From: Candidatus Aenigmatarchaeota archaeon
Lineage (GTDB): Archaea; Aenigmatarchaeota; Aenigmatarchaeia; GW2011-AR5
DNA: 64,000 bases
NCBI GenBank assembly: GCA_016187335.1
Contig: JACPJW010000002.1
Coordinates: forward strand, 1 to 64,000
Direction of reading: 5' to 3'
Shown here: piece by piece, positions 15,488-53,935 of the stretch
How the letters are laid out: each line of letters begins with the position of its first letter
Numbering within the stretch: position 1 is the stretch's first letter
Position numbers and translations under genes: made by a program
Notes under the pieces: generated by a model
Told to the model about the DNA's origin: nothing
What the model saw: only the letters and a program-made list of their open reading frames with translations
Databases searched by the model: none

Positions 15488-15531
15488 TTTTTCTTTCCAT
15501 GCATGCTTTCTTTTCCAAAAAGAAAGGATGC
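15488..15531. repeat. Family B palindromic element (intergenic counterpart of the tRNA-Ile D-loop intron core)
   Basis: 44 nt matching 26120-26161 with four substitutions and one 2-nt indel; on the minus strand it begins at the G of the rnp1 stop TAG. Confidence 0.9.
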
Positions 15532-15821
15532 TACCATTTCCTGAATTTCTTTTTTATCCTGTCTTCGGGCCTCGCAACAAGATGGCTGCCCTCGACGTCA
15601 ACCTTCTGGTTTCCAACATCAATCCTGAAAACGCTCCCGGATTTCACGATCCGCTTTGTTTCATTTTCCTTCTTTAAGACAAGCGTCTTCATCGTTTCGT
15701 CAACAATCCTTCCTTTTATGCCCGTGTTTTGCGGGTTTCTTGCCCTGACAACTTCGCATTCAAGCCCGATCAGCTCGTGACGCAGGATGTTCTTCGCATT
15801 CCGCATGGGCATCAACTTCAA
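15531..15821 (-). CDS. rnp1: Ribonuclease P protein component 1 (Rpp29)
   Basis: NILRHELIGL, GIKGRIVDET, RPEDRIKK; usual operon position. Confidence 0.95.
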   Translation of the reverse strand: MKLMPMRNAKNILRHELIGLECEVVRARNPQNTGIKGRIVDETMKTLVLKKENETKRIVKSGSVFRIDVGNQKVDVEGSHLVARPEDRIKKKFRKW

Positions 15822-15855
15822 TCTGCATCAACGCTTTAGTTTTCATTGACGGTCG

Positions 15856-15935
15856 TTTCCTTGAAGAGCAAAGCTCTTCGAGGTCCCGAAAAACTTCGTT
15901 TTTCGAGGATGATGAAACTTTTTTGAAAAGTTTCA
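15856..15935. repeat. 80-nt composite three-hairpin element, copy 2
   Basis: Gap-free paralogue of 7905-7984; overlaps the SUI1 stop TGA. Confidence 0.9.
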
Positions 15936-16235
15936 ACGCACTTCTATTATGTCGGCCGGAAACCCCTCTTTTATGAGTATCTCCTTCACGCGCTTCCTGT
16001 GGTCGCCCTGCAGCTCTATTTCATCGTTCTTGTATGTCCCGCCGCACGCTAGCTTCGACTTTAATTTTTTCAGCAGCCCCCTGATGTTGATCTTGCTTGA
16101 ATCTATTCCCTTTACCACCGTCATGTTCTTTCCAAAGCTCTTTTGCACCACGAAAACGCTTATTTTCTGCGCTTCTTTCGCTATCGTTTCGCATATGCAA
16201 AGCTCCTTTGGCAGGCCGCATTTCGGGCAAATCAC
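15933..16235 (-). CDS. Translation initiation factor SUI1 (aIF1)
   Basis: [33 protein letters not shown]. Confidence 0.96.
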
Positions 16236-16465
16236 GATTCTTTCGCACCTCTTGGTTTTTGTTTCTTTCCTTCTAGCTGAACTTTCTGCAGGGTCTGCAT
16301 CCTGGCTATGGTTCTTCGCAGGCCTTTTATTCTGCCGGGATTTTTCACGGTTCCTATCTCGCTCGCTGCTTTCTCCTTGGACAGCTCAAGCTTCAGCTCG
16401 CGTTGCTTTTCAGAAAGCTCTTTTTCGTTCATTTCCCGGATTTTTTTCATTTTAAGTATTGCCAT
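16232..16465 (-). CDS. rpl29: 50S ribosomal protein L29 (uL29)
   Basis: [12 protein letters not shown]...[17 protein letters not shown]. Confidence 0.95.
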
Positions 16466-16480
16466 GCTCAGCACCACTCC

Positions 16481-16510
16481 AAACTTTTTAACAAAAAGTT
16501 TGATCAAAAA
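16481..16510. repeat. Family A element, reverse orientation
   Basis: AAACTTTTT-AAC-AAAAAGTTT-GATCAAAAA. Confidence 0.9.
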
Positions 16511-16516
16511 TTTTTC

Positions 16517-17203
16517 TTATTGCCTCGCCGCCTCCGCAACCGGGCTTTCTGCTGCTGCAACTTCCGGTTTTTCTTTCGCTTTTTCCTCCGCAGCTTCCTT
16601 GCTCTCGATTATTTTCTTTGCCCTCTGCATTATGTCAGCGTGCCTTATCATTATCTTGACAGTCACGCCTATGTTGCCGAGCCTCGGGTTAGCGACGGCA
16701 AAGCCTTTTATGACGTCTTTCAGTGCCGGGTCGCCGGCTTTTTTCAGGTATCCTGCCGTGAAGCGCTCCTTTCTTGACCGCTGGCCTGACATCTTCCCGG
16801 AGAATACAATTTCGCAGCCGACAGCGCCCGCTTCCATTATCTTCTCCACGTAGAAATTCCCGAGGCGCTTGTAGTTGACGCCCGTTTCCAGCGCGTTCGC
16901 GATATTCTGCGCGACGATGTGGGGGTCGGCGTCGGGGTTGTCAATCTTCTGCACGTCTATCTGCGGGTTTTCAATGCTGAATTTCTGCCTCAGCTGCTCC
17001 GTCGTTTCCCTTATGCGCTCGCCGCCGGCGCCTATGACAAGACCTGGCGTCGTCGTGTATATGATTATTCTCGTGACTATCGGCGTGTGCTGGACCTCGA
17101 TCTTGCCGCACTTCGCCTGCTTGAACTGGCCCCTGATGAACTCTTCCAGCCCGACGTTCTCTTTTGCTTTCTGTATGAATATGCGCTCTTTCATCAACAT
17201 CAC
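16517..17203 (-). CDS. rps3: 30S ribosomal protein S3 (uS3)
   Basis: TTTPGLVIGAGG, AVGCEIVFSGK, GYLKKAG. Confidence 0.97.
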   Translation of the reverse strand: MMLMKERIFIQKAKENVGLEEFIRGQFKQAKCGKIEVQHTPIVTRIIIYTTTPGLVIGAGGERIRETTEQLRQKFSIENPQIDVQKIDNPDADPHIVAQNIANALETGVNYKRLGNFYVEKIMEAGAVGCEIVFSGKMSGQRSRKERFTAGYLKKAGDPALKDVIKGFAVANPRLGNIGVTVKIMIRHADIMQRAKKIIESKEAAEEKAKEKPEVAAAESPVAEAARQ

Positions 17204-17863
17204 TCAATTCGTCCGCTTTTTTGCTTTCGCTTCGTCCGCCCTTCCTTCTATCTCCCTTTCCTTGTCCTTCATTTCCTTTATTTCCTCGTCAATGCCCTTT
17301 CTTTCGGCGGCGGCAAAATCCTTCTTTATTTTCTTCTCGGCTTCACTTTCCTCTGCCGATTTTTCTTCATGAGCAGCCGCAGCGGAGATTTCCTTCTCCT
17401 TTTCTTTCATTTTCTGGACTTCTTTTTTCACGGCTTCCGTAACGGCCTTCTTCATTTTTTCCTTTGTTTTTTCTTCATTCACCTTGCCCCTCTCTACCAG
17501 AAAAATTTCAAGGTGCGTGGCTTTCAGATGCGAGCCGAAGCCTGATTTCCGGCGGCGCCTTCTCATGGCCGTGCCCTGGTGAGCGGCTGCCTGAACAAAA
17601 AGCCTTTCGCTGTCCAGGCCGAGGTTCCCCGCGTTTTTTTCGCACGAATTCAGCAGCTCCAGGATGCCGTCAACAGTCTTGGAGTAATATTTTCCTTTCA
17701 GGCTTCTTCGCCCGCTTTTGATGTCGGTAAGGAGCCTTCTGGCCCTTGTAAGCGGCTTGTTCCTTATCGCAGCGCACAGCACGACAGCGGACTTCCTTGA
17801 TATCCTCATGTTCCTTCCATGCGCTTTCGCGTGCGGCTGCTTCGGCAAAAAAGTGTACGGCAT
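17204..17863 (-). CDS. rpl22: 50S ribosomal protein L22 (uL22) with long charged C-terminal extension
   Basis: RISRKSAVVLCAAIR, LLNSCEKNA, THLEIFL. Confidence 0.94.
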   Translation of the reverse strand: MPYTFLPKQPHAKAHGRNMRISRKSAVVLCAAIRNKPLTRARRLLTDIKSGRRSLKGKYYSKTVDGILELLNSCEKNAGNLGLDSERLFVQAAAHQGTAMRRRRRKSGFGSHLKATHLEIFLVERGKVNEEKTKEKMKKAVTEAVKKEVQKMKEKEKEISAAAAHEEKSAEESEAEKKIKKDFAAAERKGIDEEIKEMKDKEREIEGRADEAKAKKRTN

Positions 17864-17954
17864 GTTCTACATCACCTGTCAAAGCGGAAGTGAAATGTCC
17901 GGCTGCCATAACCTGCACCAGAGTTCTTTTCCGATTCCGACATTCCATTCCACC

Positions 17955-18010
17955 TTTTTGATTAAACTTTTTTTTAAAAATTTTTTGATTAAACTTTTCT
18001 GAAAAGTTTA
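17955..18010. repeat. Family A element, imperfect tandem pair
   Basis: TTTTTGATTAAACTTTTTTTTAAAAATT followed by TTTTGATTAAACTTTTCTGAAAAGTTTA; overlaps the S19 stop TAA. Confidence 0.88.
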
Positions 18011-18397
18011 TTTCAGCGGCACGAACTTGCTTGAGCGCGTCGCCCCGAGACCGGGCGCGCTGTGCTGCACGCGCTTTCTCGTCAGCGCGAATTCTCCCAG
18101 GTAATGGCCGACCATTTGCTCTGTAATGCTGACAGTAACGAACTCGTTGCCCTTGTGGACGCCGAGCTTCGCCCCCACCATTTCCGGAAGTATCACCATG
18201 TCGCGCGCGTGCGTCCTTATCAGCTTGTCCTTCCCGCGGAAGCGCCGGATTTTTTCCAGCAGCATCTTCTGCTTCCTGCTGAGCCCGCGCTTTAGTGAGC
18301 GCCTGTGGCGCGCCGGCAGCAGTTTGGCGAATTCTTCGAGCGGCATGTTCTCCAGCTGCTCCAGTTCCAGTCCGTGGTACGTGAATTTTTTGGCCAT
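18008..18397 (-). CDS. rps19: 30S ribosomal protein S19 (uS19)
   Basis: [40 protein letters not shown]. Confidence 0.97.
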
Positions 18398-18686
18398 GTT
18401 AAGCACCCAGATCTTTTTCATAAGTCTCCAAGTCTTTTTCAGCAGTTTCAAGCACGCCAGGTAATGAGTCTCCTCTTGTTAGGACGTAAACTCTACCTTC
18501 TTTGACATAAAACAATGCCGGTATCCCATCTCTGCTTGCGATAAATGATGACAATCCAGACTCGTCCTGATGGGCCCTTGCAAGCGCATAAAATTCCTCC
18601 GTTGAAAATCTTGTAAGGAATGCTCCAAATCTTCTTCTTAGTTCTATCATCGTGCCTTCCTCTTTTTTTTGGCCATGTTAAGCACC
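18386..18686. repeat. 22-bp direct repeat (18386-18407 and 18665-18686) duplicating the S19 RBS and start
   Basis: TTTTTTGGCCATGTTAAGCACC present twice, flanking the 83-aa ORF. Confidence 0.9.
18399..18650 (-). CDS. Hypothetical protein inserted between L2 and S19
   Basis: 83 aa; ends GGT GCT TAA inside the repeat. Confidence 0.7.
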
Positions 18687-18971
18687 AATTTTTTGTTTAG
18701 ATTTACTGTTCCTGAAACACCCTATTGCATAATTTATTTCATCTTCGCTTGGAATACGCGGATTATAGCCCAGTTTGTCTGTAGCTTCTGCGTCCATAAC
18801 GACTTGGCCGTCTTCCAGTCGGAAGTTTACCCTCATAACCGCAATTTCTTCTCCTTTTTTGATTTCGTATGCAGTGCAAATGCCCAGTTCAGGTATATGT
18901 CCTACTATATCCAAAAATTCCTGTTCTGCCATACCAGTCTGATACCCTTTCAATGGATAAGACATTCCCAT
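18678..18971 (-). CDS. Hypothetical protein inserted between L2 and S19
   Basis: 97 aa from an ATG overlapping the L2 stop (TGATG); ends GGT GCT TAA inside the repeat. Confidence 0.7.
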   Translation of the reverse strand: MGMSYPLKGYQTGMAEQEFLDIVGHIPELGICTAYEIKKGEEIAVMRVNFRLEDGQVVMDAEATDKLGYNPRIPSEDEINYAIGCFRNSKSKQKIGA

Positions 18972-19675
18972 CAAGCCTTCCTCTTCTTCTTGCCCATGCG
19001 CCTTGGGGAAATTGAGCCTACTTTCTTTCCCGGCGGCATGTGCCTTGAAACGCTCTTGACTTTTCCCGGCCTCGTCTGGCCGCCGAACGGATGGTTGACG
19101 GCATTCTTTGCCACTCCCCTTGTCCTCGGCCATAATCTGTTCAGCGTCCGCATTGCGTAAAACTTCGTTCCGGCTTTCATGAACGGCTTCTCAATCCGCC
19201 CGGACGAAGCGGCGCTTCCCATGGTTGCCCTGCAGTCTGCAGAAAGCGTCTTCTTTTCCTTTGACGGAAGCAGAATAATGGCTTTATTCTCTTCCCTGGA
19301 AATCATCATCGCGAATGTGCCTGAAGACCTGCATATTCTTCCGCCGTCTCCGGGGATCAGCTCAATATTGTAAACCTTGCTTCCTTCCGGTATTTTCTTG
19401 AGGGGCAGTATGTTCCCTTCCCTTGCCTCTTCAAAGCTGACGGGCTGCCCGACAAACATTCCCTCGTGCGCTATCTGCAGAAACTTCTGGCCGCTGAAAT
19501 CTATGACAGCCACGGGCGTCGTCTTTCCCGGCGCGTCAATGATATCTTTAACAACGCCGAACCGCGCTTCTTTCGGCAAATATTGGTAACTGACCTTGCC
19601 GATAAAGCGGTGGCCGGGCGACCTGTACCTCGGGCTGCCTTTGCCGCGCCTCTGCTGAATCAGATTTTTGCCCAT
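18971..19675 (-). CDS. rpl2: 50S ribosomal protein L2 (uL2)
   Basis: MGKNLIQQRRGKGSP, PGDGGRICRSSG, WPRTRGVAKNAVNHPFGG. Confidence 0.98.
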   Translation of the reverse strand: MGKNLIQQRRGKGSPRYRSPGHRFIGKVSYQYLPKEARFGVVKDIIDAPGKTTPVAVIDFSGQKFLQIAHEGMFVGQPVSFEEAREGNILPLKKIPEGSKVYNIELIPGDGGRICRSSGTFAMMISREENKAIILLPSKEKKTLSADCRATMGSAASSGRIEKPFMKAGTKFYAMRTLNRLWPRTRGVAKNAVNHPFGGQTRPGKVKSVSRHMPPGKKVGSISPRRMGKKKRKA

Positions 19676-19677
19676 GA

Positions 19678-19896
19678 TTATTCACTTTCCTTTAATTCAA
19701 AATAAATTTCTCTCCCTCTGGACAGAACAACGTACTCATCAACCATCTGTGCGTGTGAGTTGTTACAGCCTCTATATTGGACCATCAGATCATTTCCATG
19801 CAGTTGAAGTATCAGTCCCGATACCATTCTCTGAATATCTCTGAACATTTCCGTTTCCTCTGCAGGAACTATCCAGCATCTTTCTACCAAGCTCAT
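19678..19896 (-). CDS. Hypothetical protein inserted between L23 and L2
   Basis: 72 aa, fills the gap exactly, GAGG SD. Confidence 0.65.
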   Translation of the reverse strand: MSLVERCWIVPAEETEMFRDIQRMVSGLILQLHGNDLMVQYRGCNNSHAQMVDEYVVLSRGREIYFELKESE

Positions 19897-19905
19897 TTTC
19901 CCGCC

Positions 19906-20349
19906 TCAGATTATTCCCAGCCTTATCGCTATCTCGCCGGCTTCCCCTTCCTTCGCGAATTTCACGAAAGCCTTTTTTCTTCCTTCCTGGTCTATCGTCG
20001 TCGTCACGCCGTTCACCTTCGTATTGAAAACATCCTCGGCCGCTTTTTTTATCTCGTTTTTTGCCGAACCCCTGTCAACTATGAACACCAGCTTGTTCTG
20101 CGTTTCAATGAGCTGGACGGCCTTCTCGGTCATGAGGACGAACTTCAGTGTGTCAAGGGAATCCTTCGCTGAAACATCTTTCACGGCCGGAACTTCTTTC
20201 GAACCCTCTGCTTTTTCCGTTTTGTTTCCTGCCCCGCCTTTCAAGAACGGGACGTACTTTCTGATTCTGCTTTCTTTCTTGGCCATGCCTGCCTTTTCCG
20301 TTTTGCTCTCTGCGCCAGCCTTTGATTCTGCTTTTGTTTTTTCTGCCAC
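19906..20349 (-). CDS. rpl23: 50S ribosomal protein L23 (uL23) with N-terminal extension
   Basis: LMTEKAVQLIETQNKLVFIVD, KKAFVKF, IAIRLGII. Confidence 0.95.
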   Translation of the reverse strand: MAEKTKAESKAGAESKTEKAGMAKKESRIRKYVPFLKGGAGNKTEKAEGSKEVPAVKDVSAKDSLDTLKFVLMTEKAVQLIETQNKLVFIVDRGSAKNEIKKAAEDVFNTKVNGVTTTIDQEGRKKAFVKFAKEGEAGEIAIRLGII

Positions 20350-20355
20350 GATTGT

Positions 20356-21168
20356 TCACCGTTCTTTTCCTTTTGATAAAACTTTTTTTGAAAAGTTGTC
20401 GAGTGCCGATTTTGTCATCACGACAAGGCGCCCTGCGTTTGCGCCCGGAGCGAGGTGCTCGGCATTTAATTCGTCAGCACTGACGGCGTCGACGCCCGGT
20501 ATGTTTGCAGCGGCTTTGAGCAGCGCGCATTTTTTCGCGGCAATGAGCAGCGGGCCTTTCTTCCTTTTGTATTTCCTGCCCCGCATCTTCCCCCGTCCTG
20601 CCCTCACCTTTTTCTCGGCGCAGCGCTCCAGTTCTTTTTCCAGGCCGAGCGAAGCCAGGATTTTTCTCGCTTCCTTTGCCTTGCTTACGTTCTCGAAGTC
20701 ATCGACAATAACCAAAGGGACATCGCCGGCATATTCGTGTCCTCTTGCCGCGACAAGATCTTTCATCGCTGCTGCCGACAGCGCGGAATGCAGCGCAAGC
20801 AGCTTTTCTTTCTTATTCACATCCTGGGCCCAGTTCTTCTCCGCTTTTGGCGGGTGAGCCCTTCTTCCCTTGACCGCCTGCGGAGAGAAGCGCCCGCGGA
20901 ACGCCATGTACCCCGCGCCCTTTCCGTGTATGCGCGGCAATCTTGACATCTCCTTGTTCATCATCGCGAACCTGTATTTCCTGCGGCCGTGGTAGTGCGC
21001 GCTTGTTCTTTTTCCCGCCAGCGGGTCGGTGCCGTACCTTTGCCTTTTTTTCGACTGCAATGACAGCACGACGCGCTTTATGACGTCCGGGCGGTATGCA
21101 GTTGCGAATACCTGCGGCAACTCTATTTCACCGACAGCTTTTCCGGACAAATCGTATAGTTTAGGCAT
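20356..21168 (-). CDS. rpl4: 50S ribosomal protein L4 (uL4)
   Basis: YRPDVIKR, PQAVKGRRAHPPKAEK, LAPGANAGRL. Confidence 0.97.
   Translation of the reverse strand: MPKLYDLSGKAVGEIELPQVFATAYRPDVIKRVVLSLQSKKRQRYGTDPLAGKRTSAHYHGRRKYRFAMMNKEMSRLPRIHGKGAGYMAFRGRFSPQAVKGRRAHPPKAEKNWAQDVNKKEKLLALHSALSAAAMKDLVAARGHEYAGDVPLVIVDDFENVSKAKEARKILASLGLEKELERCAEKKVRAGRGKMRGRKYKRKKGPLLIAAKKCALLKAAANIPGVDAVSADELNAEHLAPGANAGRLVVMTKSALDNFSKKVLSKGKER
20371..20398. repeat. Family A element inside the L4 C-terminal coding sequence
   Basis: TTTTGATAAAACTTTTTTTGAAAAGTTG, translated on the minus strand as NFSKKVLSK. Confidence 0.8.
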
Positions 21169-21394
21169 GATTATCACTTCTCGGTCCAAAAGCGTACAAA
21201 CCTATCACGATGTCTTCATCATGAAGTGGCATGTATACTTTCAGGGAACGTCTGCCGCCTTCGCAAGTATCCTTCACTTCAAAAGGTTCCGGATGTTTCT
21301 GTTTCCACGCATTATCCATATAAGCTCTTATTTCCCGAATTACCGCGCCGGCATTCTGCTCATCCAAAGGTATCGTGATTGTTATTTGACCCAT
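21161..21394 (-). CDS. Hypothetical protein inserted between L3 and L4
   Basis: 77 aa; its stop overlaps the L4 start; GAGGG SD. Confidence 0.65.
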   Translation of the reverse strand: MGQITITIPLDEQNAGAVIREIRAYMDNAWKQKHPEPFEVKDTCEGGRRSLKVYMPLHDEDIVIGLYAFGPRSDNHA

Positions 21395-21413
21395 TTTCTC
21401 GCCCTCGTTATTC

Positions 21414-22376
21414 TTACTTCCCCTGCTTGCTTTCTGTTGATATGTATTTTATTTCTGCCGGGATGAACCGCTGCTCGCGCACTGCCTTGCGCAGCCTGAC
21501 AAGCCTTTTGCGCGATCCCGGGACAGAGCCCTCTATTAATATAAACGTCCCGGGGACAACGCCGTAGCCTAAAAGCCCTCCCGTTGCGTTTGCCTTGCCG
21601 GCGTCGCCGTCTATCATCAGAACCCTTTTGTTCAGCTCCGTTCTTGTGAAAAGCCCGTACTGGCCTGCGGCGGGCACTCTCCAGTCAACATGCCTCGGGA
21701 CTGTCGAGCCGATGCTTCCAACGTGGCGGTGCATCTGCTTGTCCTTTCTTGTCTGTATCCTTATGCCAAATCGCTTCACAGGCCCCATGTAGCCGTGGCC
21801 TTTTGTCACGGCTGAGACGTCCACGAATTCCCCGCTTTTCATGACATCGGCAGCGCTGAGCTCTTTGCCCAAAAGCGATTCGCAGTATTCCTTTTTCTTC
21901 GAAAAATCGCCGCCGACAGCTATCTCAAATATCTCCGGCTTTTTTTTCCGCATGCCGGATTTTCCCGGCTGCGTTGCAACAAGCAGGCGGACGTCATCGC
22001 CTTCTTTCAATTCATCTGAAGACGACTGCCTTGATTTCTTTTCTATATTCAGCTCTTTCGGTATCTTGTCGGTGATTTTCTGCGAAGCGGTTATCAGGCC
22101 GGAAGAAGATTTTTTATAAAGCCTGTAACCGAGAACAAAAAGAGAAGGAGCGTCGAGGATGGTTGCGGGAACGCTGATGGTCTTTCCGTATGTGGGTGAG
22201 CGGTTATTATTGTCAATGAGCTGGACGTGCGTCATTCCAGCCTTGTAGCCGGCGAAGCCCAGCGGCTTTACATCCTTCGCATGCGGCCAGTGGGAAATCC
22301 TTGTGTAGATTCTCCTGGCTCTTTTCCTGGGCCAGTACTGCAGCGACCCCCTTCTCGGCCTTCTTCTCGTCGGCAT
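21414..22376 (-). CDS. rpl3: 50S ribosomal protein L3 (uL3)
   Basis: RPRRGSLQYWPRKRA, GFAGYKAGMTH, VTKGHGYMGPVKRFG, GSVPGSRKRL. Confidence 0.98.
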   Translation of the reverse strand: MPTRRRPRRGSLQYWPRKRARRIYTRISHWPHAKDVKPLGFAGYKAGMTHVQLIDNNNRSPTYGKTISVPATILDAPSLFVLGYRLYKKSSSGLITASQKITDKIPKELNIEKKSRQSSSDELKEGDDVRLLVATQPGKSGMRKKKPEIFEIAVGGDFSKKKEYCESLLGKELSAADVMKSGEFVDVSAVTKGHGYMGPVKRFGIRIQTRKDKQMHRHVGSIGSTVPRHVDWRVPAAGQYGLFTRTELNKRVLMIDGDAGKANATGGLLGYGVVPGTFILIEGSVPGSRKRLVRLRKAVREQRFIPAEIKYISTESKQGK

Positions 22377-22704
22377 GATTCACCACTTTTGCGCTTGATA
22401 GTCTCTCCGCTAATTTCCGAAATGCAAAGTTAACCCGCAAGGATTTCTGACCCCTGCAAGAACCGCTCGGAGAATTCTGATTCCCCGCGAATCGTAAGAG
22501 CAAGAATTAGTTAAAGAAAAAAGTATTTAAAGTGGAGAAACTCGGAAGCCAATTCAGATTCGAATGTGCGGAAACGGCGGCAATGCAGGCGTCATGCCCC
22601 TCATTAGCATAAGGCTTGGCGTGGGCAGAACGCAATCGTATGAAACTGGAGCAAAGTGAAGCAGCTCGGGCAGTTTCCAATGAATATCATTTCACAGCCT
22701 CGTT

Positions 22705-23037
22705 TTAGTGCAGTATGCCATCAAAACTTCCGAACTGTGCGGTGTAAGCAATGAAATCTGGGATAAGTCTCTTGACATCGTCTTCTCGTCCTTCTGCTAC
22801 AAGCCAGTATCCATTTTTACCGTCTGGGCGCATGCCGGATTTCACGCAAAATAAAGACGGGTTTGCTTTGGTGTATCTGTTGGCAGCTATTTCCAGATCC
22901 ACACTATCTCCTTTCCATGAAAAAGGAACTCCGGTAGAAAAACCTTTTCTGTTTTGGGAAATCCGTCTGGGGTCATAAGTCAAACGTATTATTGGAGAAT
23001 AAGAAGTTCCCACATCTTCTTTGTCTATAAGAACCAT
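22705..23037 (-). CDS. Hypothetical protein
   Basis: 110 aa open frame co-oriented with its neighbours; no motif recognised. Confidence 0.6.
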   Translation of the reverse strand: MVLIDKEDVGTSYSPIIRLTYDPRRISQNRKGFSTGVPFSWKGDSVDLEIAANRYTKANPSLFCVKSGMRPDGKNGYWLVAEGREDDVKRLIPDFIAYTAQFGSFDGILH

Positions 23038-23054
23038 TTGGATCCGTTCCTTTA

Positions 23055-25196
23055 TTACCCGTACATGACCTTCAGAAAGGCCTTGTCGCGCACGGCGGAA
23101 TTTTCCTGGGCAGTGAAGCGCAGCGTGTTGAATTCCTGGAGCATGTTCCTGCTTATCTCGCCCTCGACAGGGATGTCGTTGAGCGTGGCCTTTGCGCCCG
23201 CAGGTATTTCAGCCTGTCCGCCGCTTACCCCGCTTAGCGCAGGCAGCGCGAAGCTGAACTCGTTGCTCTGCTCAGTTCTTTCCTTGTATACAACCGTGAC
23301 GCGGACGTCGTAGAAGTTTGACTCCCAGAAGCGCAGTATTCCCGGCGGTTCAGCCCTGACTTTTATTTCTCCTTCAAAATCCTCGCCCACGGGGATGACG
23401 TATGTCCCCCTGTCGGCTTCGCTCCTGAAAACCTCGTCGCTGTCCAGTGAAATCACTAAATCGTTCTTGTTGTTGGTATCCCTTACCTCTAACATAATTT
23501 TTTCCACGCGGGATTTCGGGACATTTATTTTCAGCTCGCTGCCGAGAAATAAACCGGCGGAAACCCTTTTCCTTGCCGATATGTTTTTTTCCTCTATGAC
23601 ATTCTTGACGTCGACGTTGAACTCAAACGTTTTTTCCGCGCCGTCGCCGCCGTTGAGCAGTATAGAAACCGTGTCCGGGGAAAGGTCTATGAGGCCTTCC
23701 TGGTTCTTCGCGTTCAGCGTTGCTATGAATGTTTCCTTCTTGTCCGAGCGGTAAACGTGCTTCACTGTATGGAAAATCTCGCTCAGCGGAAGAGCCTGCG
23801 AAGCGCCGTCGCCGAAATCAAGGCTGCACTGGGTAAGGTGTTTTGACAGATCAGTGCAGTGAGCGGTGAACGTGACTTCCAGAGGCGACGCGCCGCTTTG
23901 CGGAGTTGCGGAAAGAACAGTGTGCGGAGCCCTGCCGACATCGGTTTCTGCGGTTACCTGGATAGTTGTGGGCGTCGGGTCTGTCAGGCCGTCGCTGTTC
24001 GTCGCCCTCAGCTTTGCCTTGAACTGCTGGTCGTCAAGCCTTGTGTTCACGTAAACATGCCTGACTTCCTGCACCTTCTTCGTGTTGAGCAGGGTTTCTT
24101 CATTTCCGTCGCCGAATTCCAGCACGCAAGAAGCAATATCAACAAGCGCGTCGTCGCATTTCGCGACAAAATTGACTTCCAGAGGCGACCTTCCTCTTTT
24201 CGGGAAGGCATCTAAATCTGTCTGAGGGCTTTTATCCAGGCCGGGCGTTACCGTTATCAGCCTTGTCGCGGGAGTGCTGTCCGAAGCCCCTTTGTCGTCT
24301 CTTGCCTTCAGGACAACGGCGCGGATTACGTTGAACTTCGCGGTATTCACATAAGTGTGCATTACGGACTGCGGCGAAGGAACGTTCTTCAATACAGCCG
24401 TTTCCCCGTCGCCGAATTCCAGCTCGCAGCTTGTGACGGAACCATCAGCATCGCTGCATTTCACGATGAAAGTTGTCTGCAGCGGCGATGTCCCCGAAAC
24501 CGGCAAAGCTGTCAGCTCTGTCTGCGGCTCAATATTGACCGAGGAAACGCCGATAGCAGCTATCGCCGGCGTCTGGTCCTGGGCGCCCATGTCGTCCACG
24601 GCGGACAGGGTTGCTATGTAATTTCCTTCTTTCAGGTAAGTATGCTGGACTGTCTGCGGTATCTGTATTTTAGAAAGTATTTGCGTCTTGCCGTCGCCGA
24701 AACTGAGGATACAGCTGGCGATCAGCCCGTCAGGGTCCTGGCACAGCGCTGTGAAAACAGCCGTGAGCGGCGCAATGCCGGATATAGGCGTTGAAGCCAG
24801 AGTAGTCTCGGGCAGCTTGTTCGGTGCCGGAGCAGGAGGCGTGCCTGTGAAGACTATCGTTCCTGTCGTGGTGAATGTTCCCCGCAGGATCCCTGTAAAT
24901 GTTCCGCTGCCCGTGAATGTACCGGAACCCGCGCATGTTCCCGTGCCCGTTATGACTACTGAACCGGGCGTTATCGTTGCCGTAAATGTTCCGCTGCCCG
25001 AAGTCGTGCATGTGCCGGTAATGCTGAACGTTCCCGTGCCGCTGAACACCACCGTGCCTGTGAATGTTCCCGTTGTTGTCACAGGCGGAAAATCAGCCGG
25101 GCTGAATGTCGTGACGCCGATCCTGACGGCAGCGGCTTCGGCAGCTGTGGCCAGAAGAACCAGAATAACGGAAGCCGCGATTATTATTTCAGCCAT
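23055..25196 (-). CDS. Secreted/surface protein with four PKD-like Ig repeats and a Thr/Gly-rich N-terminal region
   Basis: Signal peptide MAEIIIAASVILVLLATAAEA; repeats of the form 'P.SG..PL.V.F...C.D.DG.I.SC.L.FGDG....V.HTY'. Confidence 0.88.
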   Translation of the reverse strand: MAEIIIAASVILVLLATAAEAAAVRIGVTTFSPADFPPVTTTGTFTGTVVFSGTGTFSITGTCTTSGSGTFTATITPGSVVITGTGTCAGSGTFTGSGTFTGILRGTFTTTGTIVFTGTPPAPAPNKLPETTLASTPISGIAPLTAVFTALCQDPDGLIASCILSFGDGKTQILSKIQIPQTVQHTYLKEGNYIATLSAVDDMGAQDQTPAIAAIGVSSVNIEPQTELTALPVSGTSPLQTTFIVKCSDADGSVTSCELEFGDGETAVLKNVPSPQSVMHTYVNTAKFNVIRAVVLKARDDKGASDSTPATRLITVTPGLDKSPQTDLDAFPKRGRSPLEVNFVAKCDDALVDIASCVLEFGDGNEETLLNTKKVQEVRHVYVNTRLDDQQFKAKLRATNSDGLTDPTPTTIQVTAETDVGRAPHTVLSATPQSGASPLEVTFTAHCTDLSKHLTQCSLDFGDGASQALPLSEIFHTVKHVYRSDKKETFIATLNAKNQEGLIDLSPDTVSILLNGGDGAEKTFEFNVDVKNVIEEKNISARKRVSAGLFLGSELKINVPKSRVEKIMLEVRDTNNKNDLVISLDSDEVFRSEADRGTYVIPVGEDFEGEIKVRAEPPGILRFWESNFYDVRVTVVYKERTEQSNEFSFALPALSGVSGGQAEIPAGAKATLNDIPVEGEISRNMLQEFNTLRFTAQENSAVRDKAFLKVMYG

Positions 25197-25238
25197 GTTC
25201 TTTGAAGAAAGAAGCCTTGACCTGGCTCTTGATTTTCC

Positions 25239-25266
25239 TTTTGATCGAACTTTTTGGAAATGTTCA
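25239..25266. repeat. Family A element, one mismatch
   Basis: TTTTGATCGAACTTTTTGGAAATGTTCA. Confidence 0.75.
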
Positions 25267-25361
25267 TTTGTCATTTTCAAGTAAATACACCCCGACAAGA
25301 TAATAGACAAGGCGAAAGGATAAAAAGTCAACGCCGTAATGCGCCCGCCATGCGGGCGTGA

Positions 25362-25808
25362 TTACGAGCCGCGAAGTTCGTCAAGGTATTTTCTAAGCTC
25401 TCCGGTAAGATGTTCTCTCCAGATTACCTTTACGGTTTCTGGAAGTTCCGGCTCAGTGTGTTCATTAGAAATCACGGCATAATTAAAACGGTCGCCGCAA
25501 TACGCTGTCTTCAGAATCCGGTCAAGAGAAAGAGGAGCTGACGGATCCCTGTACTGGTCACTCGGTTGATTTGTCCTCGGGAAACTTCTGTCGGAGATAT
25601 ATAGGCTAAATCTCCGCTGTTGGATTTCACCTAGAGCAGCTTCGTAACTGCCGGCTTCCTGGGAAGCATAGTTGCGGTTATTTAGAACAGCCCTGACAAT
25701 TCTTAACTCGTCACCTTGAAGCCCTACAAGGAGTGCCGACCTTCTTCCAGACGCCGGTGCGTGTATCGCCGGTTTTTGCTCACGCTCCAAGATCATCGAC
25801 ATTGTCAT
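25362..25808 (-). CDS. Stand-alone receiver (CheY-like) domain protein, degenerate
   Basis: ALLVG...VRAVLNNRNYASQEAGSYEAALGEIQQRRFSLYISDRSFP follows the receiver beta1-to-beta3 pattern. Confidence 0.55.
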   Translation of the reverse strand: MTMSMILEREQKPAIHAPASGRRSALLVGLQGDELRIVRAVLNNRNYASQEAGSYEAALGEIQQRRFSLYISDRSFPRTNQPSDQYRDPSAPLSLDRILKTAYCGDRFNYAVISNEHTEPELPETVKVIWREHLTGELRKYLDELRGS

Positions 25809-25901
25809 TGGAACGCATTAAACAGAAAACCTATTTAAAATTAGACTGGATTTTATTTCGTGATTGCAGCGTGATTAGTTCTTTTCCGCCAGCGCTTTTT
25901 C

Positions 25902-25931
25902 TTTTTGATCAAACTTTTTCCTAAAAAGTTT
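25902..25931. repeat. Family A element just downstream of tRNA-Ile
   Basis: TTTTTGATCAAACTTTTT-CCT-AAAAAGTTT. Confidence 0.9.
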
Positions 25932-25943
25932 GAAAGGGCTGGA

Positions 25944-26181
25944 TGGGACGGACCCGATTTTCATGAACTTTCCCTTTTGATTGGACTTTTTGGAAAAGTT
26001 CAATTTGAACGGGCGACCTTCCGATTATCAGTCGGATGCTCTAGTTGCCCCGCCCTTTCCTTGTTTTCTTTCCGTGCATTCTTTTTCTTTCCGTGCATTC
26101 TTTTTCTTTCCGTGCATTCTTTTTCTTTCCGTGCACGCTTTCTTTTCTAAAGAAAGGGTGCCCAGGCTAAGCTACCGTCCC
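25944..26181 (-). tRNA. tRNA-Ile: tRNA-Ile(GAT) with two non-canonical introns: D-loop 19/20 (26045-26161) and T-loop 59/60 (25958-26003)
   Basis: Acceptor GGGACGG/CCGTCCC, anticodon arm TCCGA-CTGATAA-TCGGA, T-arm GCCCG-TTCAAAT-CGGGT. The T-loop intron has a perfect BHB (TTCA/TGAA, AAT bulges); the D-loop intron has a near-BHB. Confidence 0.92.
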
Positions 26182-26289
26182 GCAAGCTTATCTTTCATTC
26201 ACGGGATTTTTAAATAAATAGTATTTTCTCCTAGGGATGAGTAGAAGATGAAAACCTCAGAGAAGTTCGAAGGGCTTTAATTTTCCTTC

Positions 26290-27141
26290 TTACGAAAAGA
26301 ACTCGCTCTTCACTTTCTCGTAGATGTTCTCCTTGTCAAAGTAAACTATCTTCAGCGGCTCGCCCTTTTCCACGATGAAGGGCGTGTTCGGCTTTATGAA
26401 GTCGCCGCCGTGGCCGTCAATAATGAGCGAGCACTCCCCGTTCTTCACGACAACCTCCACTTTTTTGATTGCCGGGACTACAAAGGACTTTATATTGGAA
26501 TAGAAAGGGTAAAGCGGGATTATGCTTATGACGCCCAGATCGCTGTCGACTATGGGCCCTCCGGCAGAGGCGTTGTAAGCTGTGGATCCCGAAGGCGTCG
26601 AGAACATAAGGCCGTCGCCGATGAACGACATCGGGACGCCGTCTATGCGGAACTCGATATTAAGGATTTTCGAGGGCCTTTTCCTTGCGAAGACGATTTC
26701 ATTCAGCGCGTAAGGATATTCTTTGTGGAAAATCTTGTCTATGAGGCCTAGGCTGCCCTTGGCGCACTTCAGCCTTATCCTCTCGGCTATCTTGTAGTCC
26801 TTCTTGAAAATTCGCCTGATGTTTTTCATCAGTTCCTTGTACGTGATGGTGCACAGGAACCCGTGGCCTTCTATCTTCACGGGCAGAACGGGCACGGATT
26901 TTTCCAGCTGCTGTGCCGTCCACAGGAGCGTCCCGTCGCCGCCTACGGTTATAATCATGTCGCCGTCGAACTTCTTCACCGACGTGCCCTTCTTGCCCTC
27001 GCGCAGCGCCGTCGAGCGGTCAAAGTATATCTCGTCCGTGTACGCCTTCAGCTGGCCTTCAAGCTTTTTTGCCAGCTTTATGCCCAGCTTGTTCTGCTTG
27101 GCGATTATCAGGATCTTGGTTTTCTTCTTCGCTTTAGCCAT
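26290..27141 (-). CDS. nadK: NAD kinase
   Basis: TVGGDGTLL, ALNE, GDGLMFSTPSGSTAYNASAGGP. Confidence 0.95.
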   Translation of the reverse strand: MAKAKKKTKILIIAKQNKLGIKLAKKLEGQLKAYTDEIYFDRSTALREGKKGTSVKKFDGDMIITVGGDGTLLWTAQQLEKSVPVLPVKIEGHGFLCTITYKELMKNIRRIFKKDYKIAERIRLKCAKGSLGLIDKIFHKEYPYALNEIVFARKRPSKILNIEFRIDGVPMSFIGDGLMFSTPSGSTAYNASAGGPIVDSDLGVISIIPLYPFYSNIKSFVVPAIKKVEVVVKNGECSLIIDGHGGDFIKPNTPFIVEKGEPLKIVYFDKENIYEKVKSEFFS

Positions 27142-48341: not shown

Positions 48342-48390
48342 TATAATTTTAAAAGGCTTCATGCTTCGGATATTGTAAAGTGATTATAAC

Positions 48391-48582: not shown

Positions 48583-48625
48583 CGAATCATTTAATAATCA
48601 ATCATTCATAATAGAATTGATAATC

Positions 48626-50132: not shown

Positions 50133-50217
50133 AGTTTGTTTAAGTTATTTCTCTTTTTAGTATTACGCAAAGCGTCCGCTTCAATCTCAGTCCGCAAAAC
50201 CTCGGCTTGACTTCTTT

Positions 50218-51873: not shown

Positions 51874-51971
51874 GAATTACATACATCAGCTTGTTGCTTA
51901 AGAAGTTAATGCTACTGTATGAGGATAGAATTATTTATGACCTTCCACATGCGCCTACACTTCTTCTGTTT

Positions 51972-52367: not shown

Positions 52368-52391
52368 TTTGAAAACCTCTGTTTTTCGAAA

Positions 52392-52491
52392 GAAGTGTCA
52401 TTCTAATGAACACTTCATGATTAATCACTCCTGTCAAAACGGAGCGGAAAGTTGTTTCAGAAAAGATCCGGGCTTTTCTTTCCGTTTTTGA
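52392..52491. repeat. Hairpin-rich segment upstream of S8e
   Basis: GAAGTGT/ACACTTC hairpin; TCAAAACGGA...TCCGTTTTTGA enclosing GAAAAG/CTTTTC. Confidence 0.55.
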
Positions 52492-52581
52492 TATAGAGTC
52501 GTCTCCATGTCTTTCTTTCGCAAACTTATTTAAACATACTTACATCTATAAACGTATCTTTTATGGAGGTTTTAGGATTTT

Positions 52582-52809
52582 ATGGAAAGACCGATAGACG
52601 TTCTTAACAACGCGAAAGGCAAGAGGGTTCTGATAAAGCTGAAGAAAGGAACGGAAATCTCAGGCATCCTGCATGCAATGGACCTGCATCTCAACATGTG
52701 GCTTGAGGACGCCGAGCAGGTAAGCGAGGAAAAGAAAGTGAAGCTGGGGACCCTTCTGGTGCGCGGAGACAACATAATTTATGTTTCTCCGGCCGAGAAA
52801 GCGGATTAA
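52582..52809 (+). CDS. Sm-like archaeal protein (SmAP/Lsm)
   Basis: RPIDVL, GILHAMDLHLNMWLEDA, LLVRGDNI; upstream of L37e. Confidence 0.95.
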   Translation: MERPIDVLNNAKGKRVLIKLKKGTEISGILHAMDLHLNMWLEDAEQVSEEKKVKLGTLLVRGDNIIYVSPAEKAD

Positions 52810-52918
52810 GAAAAACGAAAAGACAAAGCCGTTTGATTGAAAGACGAAACCTGAGTCTTTGTTTCCGCTTTAGTGAAAGGGAAATGCACGCTCACATGCA
52901 GTTTTCAGAGTGATAAAA

Positions 52919-53164
52919 ATGAAAGGCACGCGCAGCTTCGGCAAGCACAACAAGATTGTTCACATACGATGCCGAAGGTGCGGCCGCCATTCCTTCCACG
53001 AGCGCCTCGGCAAGTGCAGCGCGTGCGGATACCCGCGGGCAAAGATAAGAAAGGAAGCATGGCGCTGGAAGCCTGTGAACCGCGCAGCCCGCCGCTTCAT
53101 TAAGCCGAAGCACCAGAAGCCGAAGACGAAATACATTGGCAGGCAGACAGCGAAGATAAGATAA
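52919..53164 (+). CDS. rpl37e: 50S ribosomal protein L37e
   Basis: KGTRSFGK...HIRCRRCGRHSF...CSACGY. Confidence 0.95.
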   Translation: MKGTRSFGKHNKIVHIRCRRCGRHSFHERLGKCSACGYPRAKIRKEAWRWKPVNRAARRFIKPKHQKPKTKYIGRQTAKIR

Positions 53165-53166
53165 AT

Positions 53167-53361
53167 ATGCCAAAACTGTCCAGGATCGACAAGCTTGTTC
53201 TGAAGGCAGGAAAGCAGAGGAAGAAAGCGGGAAGATTCTGTCCCGTCTGCAAGGGCACTGACGTTGTGCTTGACGCAAGGATGGAAATGATCTGGTATCG
53301 GTGCCGTAAATGCTCACACAGCGCCGCGTCGTTCCCGGAGAAAGCCGTTAATTTTGGTTAA
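53167..53361 (+). CDS. Small Zn-ribbon protein
   Basis: CPVC and CRKC motifs; 64 aa; starts 2 nt after L37e. Confidence 0.7.
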   Translation: MPKLSRIDKLVLKAGKQRKKAGRFCPVCKGTDVVLDARMEMIWYRCRKCSHSAASFPEKAVNFG

Positions 53362-53380
53362 ACTTTTTGGAAAAGTTTAA
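53352..53380. repeat. Family A element
   Basis: TTTTGG-TTAAACTTTT-TGG-AAAAGTTTAA; overlaps the TAA stop at 53359-53361. Confidence 0.88.
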
Positions 53381-53409
53381 TTTATAAGCCGGCGCGACAA
53401 GGGATAATC

Positions 53410-53595
53410 ATGAACCCGTCAACCCTGGAGAAATTAAGCGCCCTGTCGTTCCTGCTTATCGGCATTTCTTTGCTTTTGTTCGCCATGACGCTGGTAGGCG
53501 TAAACACGCAGTTTTTGGGGATTGCAATGGTCGTTTCGGGCATAGTTGCTGTCATAACAGGCGCGTTTTTGTGGCTTGACAGCAGGAAGCAGTAG
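53410..53595 (+). CDS. Small two-TM membrane protein
   Basis: 61 aa, two hydrophobic helices. Confidence 0.7.
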   Translation: MNPSTLEKLSALSFLLIGISLLLFAMTLVGVNTQFLGIAMVVSGIVAVITGAFLWLDSRKQ

Positions 53596-53630
53596 ACCCT
53601 TTGCAACTTTTCAGAAAAGTTGCATCAAAA
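53595..53630. repeat. Hybrid family A/B element
   Basis: GACCCTTTGCAACTTTTCAGAAAAGTTGCATCAAAA; the first 11 nt equal 53753-53763 in the tRNA-Lys intron; begins at the G of a TAG stop. Confidence 0.85.
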
Positions 53631-53735
53631 TGGAGAAAGCGTCTGCGGAAAGAAAATACATTAAAAATCATGTACGGAAACTTCGTTTTCTGGGCAAAGA
53701 ACATTTAAAAGATATTACACTGATTATTTCTGCAC

Positions 53736-53935
53736 GGGCCTGTAGCTCAGATGACCCTTTGCACCCTTTTTAGAAAAAAGCGTGCACGGAAAAGGGAGGG
53801 TCAGAGAAACCTGGTAGAGTAGCGGCCTCTTAATATGGCGAAAGCCTTTAAGGGAAAGGAGTTAACCTAAGAGGAAAACCGTAGGTTGTCTCTCTGGTAA
53901 GCCGCCTGTCGCGGGTTCGAATCCCGTCGGGCCCA
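53736..53935 (+). tRNA. tRNA-Lys: tRNA-Lys(CTT) with two introns: D-loop about 15/16 (53751-53809) and 37/38 (53833-53899)
   Basis: GGGCCTG/CGGGCCC, GCTC-AG[i]CCTGGTA-GAGT, GCGGC-CTCTTA[i]A-GCCGC, GCGGG-TTCGAAT-CCCGT. Confidence 0.85.

Follow-up and report, generated by a model that had tools for sequence, protein, structure and literature searches.

A palindromic repeat with a mirror-image purine tail in tRNA introns and at stop codons of an Aenigmatarchaeota genome

Features of the loci

The window (the 64,000-nt stretch of an Aenigmatarchaeota contig analysed here) contains two intron-bearing tRNA genes, the rnp1-rps17 gene pair and several copies of a short palindromic repeat, family B, some of which enclose a second hairpin, family A. 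The features are as follows:

7353-7383, minus strand: partial family B copy, 3' half only (AAAGCGTGCACGGAAAAAGGG), from blastn and nhmmer
15124-15471, minus strand: rps17 coding sequence, starting 59 nt past the rnp1 stop (ORF list, relatives)
15482-15531, minus strand: family B copy in the rnp1-rps17 spacer, GCAT C CTTTCTTTT tgg AAAAGAAAG C ATGC AT GGAAAGAAAAA TATTA (covariance model R1)
15531-15821, minus strand: rnp1 coding sequence (RNase P protein, Rpp29-like), ending ...RKW-TAG (ORF list)
25871-25941, minus strand: composite B[A] copy, 2 nt past the tRNA-Ile discriminator base (full-length R1 match)
25944-26181, minus strand: tRNA-Ile(GAT) gene, exons 26181-26162, 26044-26004 and 25957-25944 (in-silico splicing)
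25958-26003, minus strand: tRNA-Ile T-loop intron, 46 nt, on a family A hairpin (splicing check; absent in G001)
26045-26161, minus strand: tRNA-Ile D-loop intron, 117 nt (covariance model, splicing check, G001 ortholog)
53594-53663, plus strand: composite B[A] copy at the TAG stop of a predicted ORF, 53410-53595 (full-length R1 match)
53736-53935, plus strand: tRNA-Lys(CTT) gene, exons 53736-53750, 53810-53832 and 53900-53935 (in-silico splicing, orthologs)
53751-53809, plus strand: tRNA-Lys D-loop intron, 59 nt, at position 15/16 (covariance model, orthologs, splicing check)

Excision of 26045-26161 and 25958-26003 leaves a perfect 75-nt tRNA-Ile(GAT) cloverleaf (ARAGORN), and the D-loop junction of the same gene is uninterrupted (AGCCTGG|CTAGAGC) in G001, a genome of the same genus. 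The 5' splice site predicted in an earlier, sequence-only reading was placed correctly, the first G of the element (26161) being the first base of the intron. The D-loop intron contains the B core at 26114-26161 and a tandem repeat of a 19-nt unit, GAATGCACGGAAAGAAAAA, and closes with GAAAGGGCG, GGGC and AA. Its bulge-helix-bulge (BHB) motif, read by eye, is of a relaxed kind, with helix H2 GCCT/GGGC (four pairs of four, one of them G·U), the 5' bulge GG|G, helix H3 CACCCTTTC/GAAAGGGCG and an outer bulge that is not 3 nt long. The T-loop intron has a perfect hBHBh' motif (GCCCG-TTCA-AA|T-TGAAC ... GTTCA-TGAA-AA|T-CGGGT). The composite copy behind the gene has the frame CAGC C CTTT ... AAAAAG C GCTG GC GGAAAAGAA, with the family A hairpin at its apex.

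Splicing of tRNA-Lys(CTT) in silico, including removal of a second intervening sequence in the anticodon loop (53833-53899), likewise gives a perfect cloverleaf, of 74 nt (ARAGORN). The D-loop intron has the outer helix TGACCC/GGGTCA around a B core at 53761-53804; its BHB, again read by eye, is likewise relaxed, with three of four H2 pairs and an outer bulge that is not 3 nt.

As had been noticed earlier, the first G of the element is the G of a TAG stop codon in both intergenic copies, at 15531 (rnp1) and at 53595. The rnp1 frame terminates at the same residue in relatives (tblastn against 28 genomes), and in the rnp1-rps17 spacer a Shine-Dalgarno-like GGTG follows the element. The family A flank reported for the second intergenic copy is indeed shared, within a complete B frame into whose apex a family A hairpin is nested: AGAC C CTTT (family A hairpin and ATCAAAA) AAAG C GTCT GC GGAAAGAAAA TACATTA. 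Part of this copy has an exact 38-nt twin on contig C2 (903793-903830). The completeness of the frame, and the nesting of family A within it, had been overlooked in the first reading.

Distribution and structure of the repeat

The tRNA-intron and intergenic sequences belong to one repeat family. Alignment of 15488-15531 with 26120-26161 gave the four substitutions and the single 2-nt indel that had been described, including the compensatory pair in the outer stem (GCAT/ATGC against GCAC/GTGC, read on the transcribed minus strand); one more of the four, AT vs AC in the linker, also co-varies. The tRNA-Lys intron shares the core, both arms being 2 nt shorter (CTTTTT/AAAAAG) and its tail, GGAAAAG, altered in step with them, and 53595-53605 (GACCCTTTGCA) is an exact 11-mer match to the same intron. 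The copies of the window are further linked by covariance model R1, built from nine copies including 15482-15531 and searched over the whole genome: E-values were 1.5e-11 for the tRNA-Ile D-loop intron, 1.7e-5 for that of tRNA-Lys, 3e-6 for 53594-53663 and 3e-4 for 25871-25941, and the rnp1-rps17 copy, itself one of the nine, scored 73.8 bits.

About 50 copies were found in this 1.0-Mb genome, nested and tandem ones among them. The GCAC-type core occurs in the D-loop introns of tRNA-Ile and tRNA-Lys, in three T-loop introns and in tRNA-His and tRNA-Phe. The family is present in 35 of 41 genomes of the order, with 0-48 copies per genome. An exact-pattern search yielded at least 114 sites in at least eight archaeal lineages, with a near-identical core across phyla; no copy was found by it in viral contigs. 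The matches listed (80 records) are all archaeal and come from Aenigmatarchaeota, Nanoarchaeota, Micrarchaeota, Altiarchaeota, Iainarchaeota, Woesearchaeota, Thermoplasmatota, Methanophagales and Methanosarcinales.

A copy of family B takes up about 45-55 nt of one strand and is A/T-rich (CCTTTCTTTT / AAAAGAAAGG). Its hairpin has a base stem of 4 bp, then a conserved C·C mismatch and above it a pyrimidine/purine stem of 6-12 bp. Past the hairpin come a linker of 2 nt and a purine tail whose sequence mirrors that of the purine arm; TATTA often stands next. The pairing is better than that of shuffled sequence: in 107 aligned copies 98.1% of the stem cells pair and 11 of 13 stem pairs have changed on both sides, and neither value was reached in any of 500 shuffles. 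Mismatches in the stem, read on the sense strand, are G·T in 12 cases and A·C in one, which identifies the sense strand as the folding strand.

The mirror relation of the tail to the purine arm had escaped the first reading. A perfect mirror is present in 59 of 76 copies, nearly always 3 nt past the base stem, whereas a perfect direct repeat of the arm is found in just seven. With shuffled tails the number of perfect mirrors averaged 18.8 and rose to 31 at most, the observed level being reached in none of 2000 permutations; the copies tested comprise 23 distinct arm types. In other phyla, 16 of the 20 copies that had not been selected by the search pattern have a perfect mirror.

In bacterial genomes, class II intrastrand triplex-forming sequences have been defined by a 5' pyrimidine tract, a complementary purine tract and a third purine tract antiparallel to the second and mirroring it (Holder et al. 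2015, PMC4666352). Family B has this order of tracts and bears the sequence signature of an intrastrand triplex of the fold-back kind (class II), which it may form. Holder et al. (2015, PMC4666352) report that RNA forms no purine-motif triplexes, so if the fold matters in RNA it would not be the classical triplex.

Relative to the local transcription unit every copy is in sense orientation, and the purine tracts are always on the non-template strand. The 5' edge of a copy always coincides with a 5' splice site or lies close to a stop codon (0-3 nt) or to the discriminator base of a tRNA (1-3 nt). In this genome 14 of 52 copies directly adjoin the stop of an ORF that runs in the same direction and has at least 77 codons. 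With the copies read in antisense the count is two of 52, and random positions give 2.7% (p = 7e-11); in relatives seven of 47 copies adjoin a stop in this way. Copies C2:74732 (plus strand), C2:75757 and C2:78271 (both minus) all lie within 4 kb, which shows that orientation tracks the local gene and not the replichore. In Methanosarcinales and Methanophagales the element stands between the stop codon and an oligo-T terminator, so that it would be at the mRNA 3' end.

Turnover and splicing competence

Orthologous sites are empty at rnp1-rps17, in the D-loops of tRNA-Ile and tRNA-Lys and at further stop codons, which indicates that the element has been gained or turned over at these places. 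In 17 of 28 relatives only 0-6 nt separate rnp1 from rps17, an empty site; three of 28 genomes carry the element there, G014 and G008 with different variants. The tRNA-Ile gene of G001 is without the D-loop intron and without the T-loop intron, and G001 and most relatives have no tRNA-Lys intron at position 15/16. Of four other stop-codon sites compared with four relatives, three lack the element in all of these: at the stops of RpoA'', FEN1 and an RNase Z-like gene it is found only in the present genome (G000) among the five. The TFS stop carries such an element in nine of 30 genomes, as different variants. Comparison of filled and empty rnp1-rps17 sites shows a possible duplication of GGT; no target-site duplication was consistent across the filled and empty pairs at rnp1-rps17, tRNA-Ile and the other stops.

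The proposal that a repeat creates new tRNA introns is weakened by these data. The tRNA-Ile D-loop intron also exists without B: G025 and G038 have a 16-nt intron at the same site, and G032 has a B element within that same intron frame. At least some copies thus entered pre-existing introns, and B may have been inserted into introns secondarily instead of having given rise to them.

Intron copies differ from those at stop codons by an extra closing helix that completes the BHB motif. The full score of 13 of 13, a perfect hBHBh', is attained by four T-loop B introns of contig C2. Scanning the 14 stop-codon copies, with a crude scan that misses relaxed motifs, gave best scores of 0-11, similar to those of 300 random positions, and none reached 13; the candidate cuts fall within the ORF. 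Lacking the closing helix, the stop-codon copies are not introns, and they are probably not cut. The genome has one EndA gene (PF01974, 97 bits, 202 aa). Among solved structures the M. jannaschii and N. equitans enzymes are closest to its product, which has a Lys-rich loop like that of the broad-specificity N. equitans enzyme. This EndA probably splices out the intron copies. The Y1/RAYT transposase domain PF01797 had no match in the genome, which is 91% complete, in a search that matched six of 14 control genomes; nor was TnpB or a reverse transcriptase found there.

Origin and possible role

We are inclined, with rather more confidence than doubt, to regard family B as a REP-like, non-autonomous structured repeat of archaea at large that is kept where it is harmless or spliced out. 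Host functions would insert new copies at the DNA level, each in the direction in which the surrounding unit is transcribed, and copies would survive only at sites where they are harmless. A copy that immediately follows a stop codon would remain part of the mRNA, as a 3' or intercistronic spacer, and one that directly adjoins the 3' end of a tRNA would be removed along with the trailer. Loops or existing introns of tRNA and rRNA genes would be further tolerated sites, where a closing helix complementary to the element's 5' end, together with four exon-complementary bases, would complete a bulge-helix-bulge and lead EndA to remove the copy together with the intron.

Several features sit less easily with a selfish repeat and would fit selection at the RNA level: exact abutment to the stop codon even where the spacer has room, strict sense orientation, tolerance of G·U pairs and a near-identical core across phyla. 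They lend some credit to an unlikely but substantial alternative, a functional RNA module that, within the transcript, would protect or define the 3' boundary of whatever lies upstream, be it an ORF, a tRNA or a 5' exon. It could do so as a roadblock to exonucleases or as a cut-here signal read by a conserved archaeal nuclease, and its spread would reflect recruitment for that role. The placement of the 5' edge at stop codon, discriminator base or 5' splice site, the excess of G·T over A·C, the position before the oligo-T terminator in Methanosarcinales and Methanophagales and the recurrence at the TFS stop agree with such a module. Occupancy is nevertheless low and patchy, at rnp1-rps17 and at the three stops filled in this genome only, and copy number varies over its whole range among close relatives; copies in introns and trailers would protect RNA that is discarded, and the reported absence of purine-motif triplexes from RNA (PMC4666352) also speaks against it.

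Somewhat more doubtful still is the speculation that the hairpin and mirror tail form a pan-archaeal cis-signal for a conserved host machine, for strand-specific integration at the 3' boundaries of transcribed units or for RNA cutting at the 5' edge, and a vehicle that seeds BHB introns. If true, the element would be the long-sought seed of protein-spliced (BHB) introns in tRNA, rRNA and perhaps mRNA genes, a loop insertion turning into an intron once a short closing helix arises.

We consider a role of the element in DNA, as a pause site or attenuator of transcription, very unlikely. In that case the two homopurine tracts of the non-template strand would give rise, in the wake of RNA polymerase, to an intrastrand triplex or a stable R-loop that slows or ends transcription at gene ends. 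The constant strand of the tracts and the copies at gene 3' ends accord with this, as does the 19-nt tandem expansion in the tRNA-Ile intron, which fits the instability at bacterial triplex motifs (PMC4666352); many copies, however, lie inside tRNA and rRNA genes, and one in the ribosomal-protein gene cluster at rnp1-rps17, where a block would be harmful.

Least probable is the earlier suggestion that tRNA introns spread into mRNA-coding DNA by reverse splicing, the intergenic copies being introns or former introns: the same family does occur in both places, and its first base is the tRNA-Ile 5' splice site, but the stop-codon copies have neither a closing helix nor, in the crude scan, a BHB above the random background, they lie past the coding sequence and interrupt no reading frame, and the 91%-complete genome yielded no reverse transcriptase.

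Relation to known repeats and introns

REP/BIME elements are bacterial, species-specific and mobilised by RAYT (Y1) transposases. Family B is like them in being a short extragenic palindrome of many copies, found after stop codons and between operon genes, with variable occupancy of orthologous sites. It differs by its third, mirror tract, by its presence inside RNA genes, by a core common to several phyla and by the missing RAYT/Y1 match in the present genome. Miniature inverted-repeat transposable elements (MITEs), in which terminal inverted repeats flank a body, are also short, non-coding and multi-copy, with presence or absence at orthologous sites and nested insertions; in family B, unlike MITEs, the palindrome itself is the body, strand specificity is strict, and neither a consistent target-site duplication nor, in the 91%-complete genome, a cognate transposase was found.

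The PIT elements, BoxC and TMECO are intrastrand triplex repeats of bacteria (Holder et al. 2015, PMC4666352). They share with family B the multi-copy dispersal, the class II order of pyrimidine, complementary purine and third purine tracts, the association with local genome instability and the lack of a known mobilising enzyme. TMECO is G/C-rich, bacterial and uncorrelated with gene orientation (PMC4666352), whereas family B is A/T-rich, archaeal and strictly sense-oriented, has a base stem, a C·C mismatch and a TATTA end, adjoins stop codons and tRNA ends, and sits in tRNA introns. Membership of family B in BoxC/TMECO was considered and rejected, as these are G/C-rich by description and have no sequence similarity to it.

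The finding of one repeat in tRNA introns and at stop codons, with empty sister sites, bears on how archaeal tRNA genes gain introns. Transposed BHB introns have been described in the tRNAs of Thermoproteales (Fujishima et al. 2010, as summarised in PMC4090602), where, according to that summary, intron gain is thought to occur at the DNA level. The kind of evidence described there, a highly similar intron sequence in different tRNA species and positions, is seen here for the GCAC-type B core. Compared with the Thermoproteales introns as summarised, the shared sequence of family B is a defined structured module, extends over many phyla and lies also outside tRNA genes, at stop codons and in trailers.

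Family B copies in the window and the tRNA genes that carry them

The genome under study (G000) consists of two contigs (1.01 Mb, 47% G+C, 91% complete), and the window is the first 64 kb of the first of these. Only one tRNA gene of the window was recovered by ARAGORN and Rfam. Both overlooked tRNA-Ile and tRNA-Lys, since introns at unusual positions are present in nearly all tRNA genes; most tRNA genes of such genomes escape standard tRNA finders. The two missed genes were modelled as follows:

26181-25944, minus strand, tRNA-Ile(GAT), with a D-loop intron of 117 nt (26161-26045) and a T-loop intron of 46 nt (26003-25958)
53736-53935, plus strand, tRNA-Lys(CTT), with a D-loop intron of 59 nt (53751-53809) and an anticodon-loop insert of 67 nt

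In silico splicing produced a perfect cloverleaf for each. In the same-genus genome G001 the tRNA-Ile acceptor stem is identical and the junctions AGCCTGG|CTAGAGC and GTTCAAATCGGGT are uninterrupted, which fixes the splice sites and places the 5' splice site exactly where it had been predicted. The anticodon-loop insert of tRNA-Lys (53833-53899) contains an inner bulge-helix-bulge splicing motif (BHB), with AGAG-GA|A about 23 nt before the final junction, and may represent two introns, nested or adjacent.

Family B is a hairpin of about 50 nt with a base stem, a C·C mismatch and a pyrimidine/purine stem, followed by a 2-nt linker and a purine tail, often with TATTA. On the minus (transcribed) strand, the copy in the rnp1-rps17 spacer reads TA[G CAT C CTTTCTTTT tgg AAAAGAAAG C ATGC AT GGAAAGAAAAA TATTA], and the D-loop intron of tRNA-Ile starts with G CAC C CTTTCTTT aga AAAGAAAG C GTGC AC GGAAAGAAAAA. 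As the sequence-only reading had it, four substitutions and a 2-nt indel separate the two copies, and two of the substitutions form a compensatory base-stem pair; a third, in the linker, also co-varies. The likeness it reported for tRNA-Lys held as well, the intron carrying the B core with each arm shortened by 2 nt. Unrecognised at that stage were two complete B frames with a hairpin of a second family, A, nested at the apex (25871-25941 and 53594-53663), of which the former starts 2 nt past the tRNA-Ile discriminator base.

Four tandem repeats of a 19-nt unit, GAATGCACGGAAAGAAAAA, corresponding to the base-stem 3' strand, linker and tail of family B, were observed in the tRNA-Ile D-loop intron (26059-26144). 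This fits local instability at a triplex-type motif.

Structure of family B

Among 107 model-aligned copies, 98.1% of the stem cells are paired. Eleven of the 13 pairs have changed on both sides (288 cells, against 86 ± 8 when shuffled). The signal was lost when the partner columns were slid, and is favoured somewhat by an alignment that was fitted to the model. The C·C mismatch is found in 100 of the 107 copies.

The purine tail is the mirror of the purine arm and not its complement, with matching run lengths, e.g. A2-G-A5-G in the arm and G-G-A5-G-A2 in the tail. Perfect mirror tails, nearly always positioned 3 nt past the base stem, are present in 59 of 76 strictly parsed copies (at least 25 genomes), which comprise 23 arm types; only seven of the 76 have a perfect direct-repeat tail, and permuted tails gave a mean of 18.8 and a maximum of 31 perfect mirrors. 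The rule is also kept in 16 of 20 copies from other phyla that were not selected by the search pattern. Since a mirror repeat cannot be produced by copying, the mirror tail must be under selection.

Pairing is possible between the linker plus the first tail G on one side and, on the other, the two leading bases of the base-stem 3' strand plus the mismatched C (in 104 of 120 cells, compared with 85 ± 2.5). Such pairing would explain the conservation of the mismatch, and suggests that family B may adopt two mutually exclusive states. On the sense strand, the stem contains G·T mismatches in 12 cases and an A·C mismatch in one, indicating that the folding strand is the sense strand. Judged by its sequence, the layout corresponds to a class II purine-motif intrastrand triplex in the sense of Holder et al. 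2015 (PMC4666352); according to the same study, triplexes of this kind reportedly do not form in RNA.

Distribution

A covariance model built from nine copies detected about 50 copies in the whole genome of G000, and 0-48 copies per genome across the order, with family B present in 35 of 41 genomes. In addition, an exact pattern (hairpin, C, six free bases and tail; 26 fixed bases) matched at least 114 places in 596 Gb, where about 0.001 chance matches are expected. The free bases of the pattern still give the base stem and the C·C mismatch in these matches. Among the matches listed, all 80 records are archaeal, and the lineages are Aenigmatarchaeota, Nanoarchaeota, Micrarchaeota, Altiarchaeota, Iainarchaeota, Woesearchaeota, Thermoplasmatota, Methanophagales and Methanosarcinales. 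The same pattern found no copy in viral contigs. No Rfam family for the element was found, a permissive threshold giving chance-level matches only, and literature searches by topic and by sequence string found no paper describing it.

Two arrangements outside DPANN are notable. In a Thermoplasmatota locus (L259), three tandem copies follow a 404-codon ORF. In Methanophagales and Methanosarcinales (L243, L288 and L297), copies lie between a stop codon and an oligo-T terminator; some relatives within these methanogen-related lineages are culturable.

Position and orientation

All copies lie on the sense strand of the local gene, even opposite-strand copies less than 4 kb apart. In 14 of 52 cases the element borders on the stop codon of an open frame that runs in the same direction and has 77 codons or more, with the final base of that codon at element position 0-3; the antisense reading gives 2 of 52, and random positions give 2.7% (p = 7e-11). 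The proteins upstream end at the same point as their orthologs, and family B thus neither truncates nor extends them. Most remaining copies are located in D-, T- or anticodon-loop introns, in 16S rRNA or 1-3 nt past a tRNA 3' end, and the same contexts were seen again in relatives and other phyla.

The 16S rRNA gene is interrupted by B-type elements in G000 (C2:241948-242485) and in two further loci (L069 and L113), for instance at GGATTAGA|T, a site that recurs in two relatives. These are probably rRNA introns built on the same module. A promoter role for the TATTA end was ruled out, as rps17 starts 11 nt after it and tRNA-Lys has a separate TTTAAAA promoter box. Promoter or classical-terminator roles for family A or B were rejected too, given the copies inside tRNA genes.

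Filled and empty sites

Empty orthologous sites were sought in sister genomes at rnp1-rps17, tRNA-Ile and tRNA-Lys, and were found at all three. The rnp1 gene ends in W-stop in 28 of 28 relatives, and rps17 starts 0-6 nt after it in 17 of these. The junction holds a B copy in G000, different B variants at the same point in G014 and G008, and other hairpins in G001. In the relatives (L002-L029) the rnp1 end reads TGG-TGA, where GGTGA serves as Shine-Dalgarno sequence of rps17 0-6 nt before its start. A second GGTGTGA follows the element in G000 (15472-15487), and may be an insertion remnant or a restored ribosome-binding site.

At the stops of RpoA'', FEN1 and an RNase Z-like protein, G000 is the only one of five genomes with an element. 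In 9 of the 30 genomes compared across the order (L206-L234), a triplex-type element comes directly after the stop of the gene for transcription factor S (TFS), each a different variant with its own matching mirror tail; this stop is either a hot spot or the site of an old, co-evolving copy.

The D-loop site of tRNA-Ile is empty in G001, G014, G010, G030 and G040, and holds other B variants in G007, G020 and G028. Position 15/16 of tRNA-Lys lacks an insert in G001 and in most relatives; G007, G008, G012 and G005 have other variants there. The tRNA D-loop sites are thus hot spots with fast turnover. The empty sites speak for gain and loss of copies. The proposal that the repeat creates new tRNA introns is weakened, since some copies, at the least, went into introns that were there before them: the tRNA-Ile D-loop site has a bare 16-nt intron in G025 and G038, and in G032 a B element within that intron frame.

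Predicted splicing of the intron copies

Intron copies carry an extra 3' segment complementary to the element 5' end, together with four bases complementary to the exon, and these additions are predicted to complete the BHB. A strict scan recovered the full form of the motif (hBHBh'), perfect, in four T-loop B introns on the second contig. The family A T-loop intron of tRNA-Ile in the window also has a perfect one; the D-loop intron BHBs are relaxed. The strict scan, which has a high random background and misses relaxed D-loop motifs, found no BHB above background in stop-codon copies. An exact 6-nt closing complement lies downstream of 4 of 38 non-stop and 0 of 14 stop copies, a criterion too strict for these counts to carry weight.

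The tRNA splicing endonuclease (EndA) is encoded by a single gene:

G000:C2:410505-411113 (L121:1474-2082), minus strand, EndA, 202 aa

Its Lys-rich loop QLKKGPKSAKEH can be aligned, with no gap, to the corresponding loop of the catalytic subunit in N. equitans (IPKKGKRSEREH, 3iey_A); M. jannaschii EndA (1a79) lacks such a loop. From the alignment to the N. equitans subunit we infer that the enzyme may be of broad specificity. No second subunit was detected in G000 with PF01974.

Mode of spread

No match to Y1 transposase, TnpB or reverse transcriptase was found in G000, at its 91% completeness, and inspection of filled and empty sites revealed neither a target-site duplication nor a 'TA target' consistent across copies. 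We therefore lean towards reading family B as a REP-like structured repeat, whose copies would spread at the DNA level through host functions and be retained only where harmless or removable by splicing. The main rival, a functional RNA boundary module, accords with three features of the copies, which abut exactly on 3' boundaries, lie in sense orientation and have a pan-archaeal core; we regard it as possible, if rather doubtful. Reverse splicing of tRNA introns into mRNA-coding DNA is highly improbable.

For the tRNA introns of Thermoproteales, no transposition mechanism is known (PMC4090602). Family B bears on the wider question of how tRNA genes of archaea come by their introns: one defined module of 50 nt occurs on its own behind genes, on its own behind tRNAs, and as the body of introns. 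It offers concrete substrates on which EndA cleavage and triplex formation can be assayed, and targets for population sequencing. Contigs from four groundwater DNA runs, compared with window positions 7001-27000, break at the repeats.

Family A and other repeats

Family A is a second triplex-type hairpin, in which a base stem of 4-5 bp and a T4-5/A4-5 apex are followed by [N]ATC and then an A-run; the genome has 84 strict copies. The length of the A-run equals that of the T-run in seven of the eight window copies, which lie at:

10599, minus strand
15094, minus strand
15124, minus strand
16481, plus strand
18009, minus strand
25931, minus strand
53378, minus strand
53604, plus strand

Family A fills the T-loop intron of tRNA-Ile, nests at the apex of B frames and occurs between ribosomal-protein genes, twice in tandem in the case of rps17 and rpl14. 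Relative to its flanking ORFs, the 53378 copy appears to be in antisense orientation. An 84-nt repeat (7901-7984 and 15852-15935, 85% identity), the second copy of which lies just upstream of rnp1, is made up of a pair of G+C-rich hairpins, after which comes a family A half. Hairpins like these fill the rnp1-rps17 spacer of G001 (L004).
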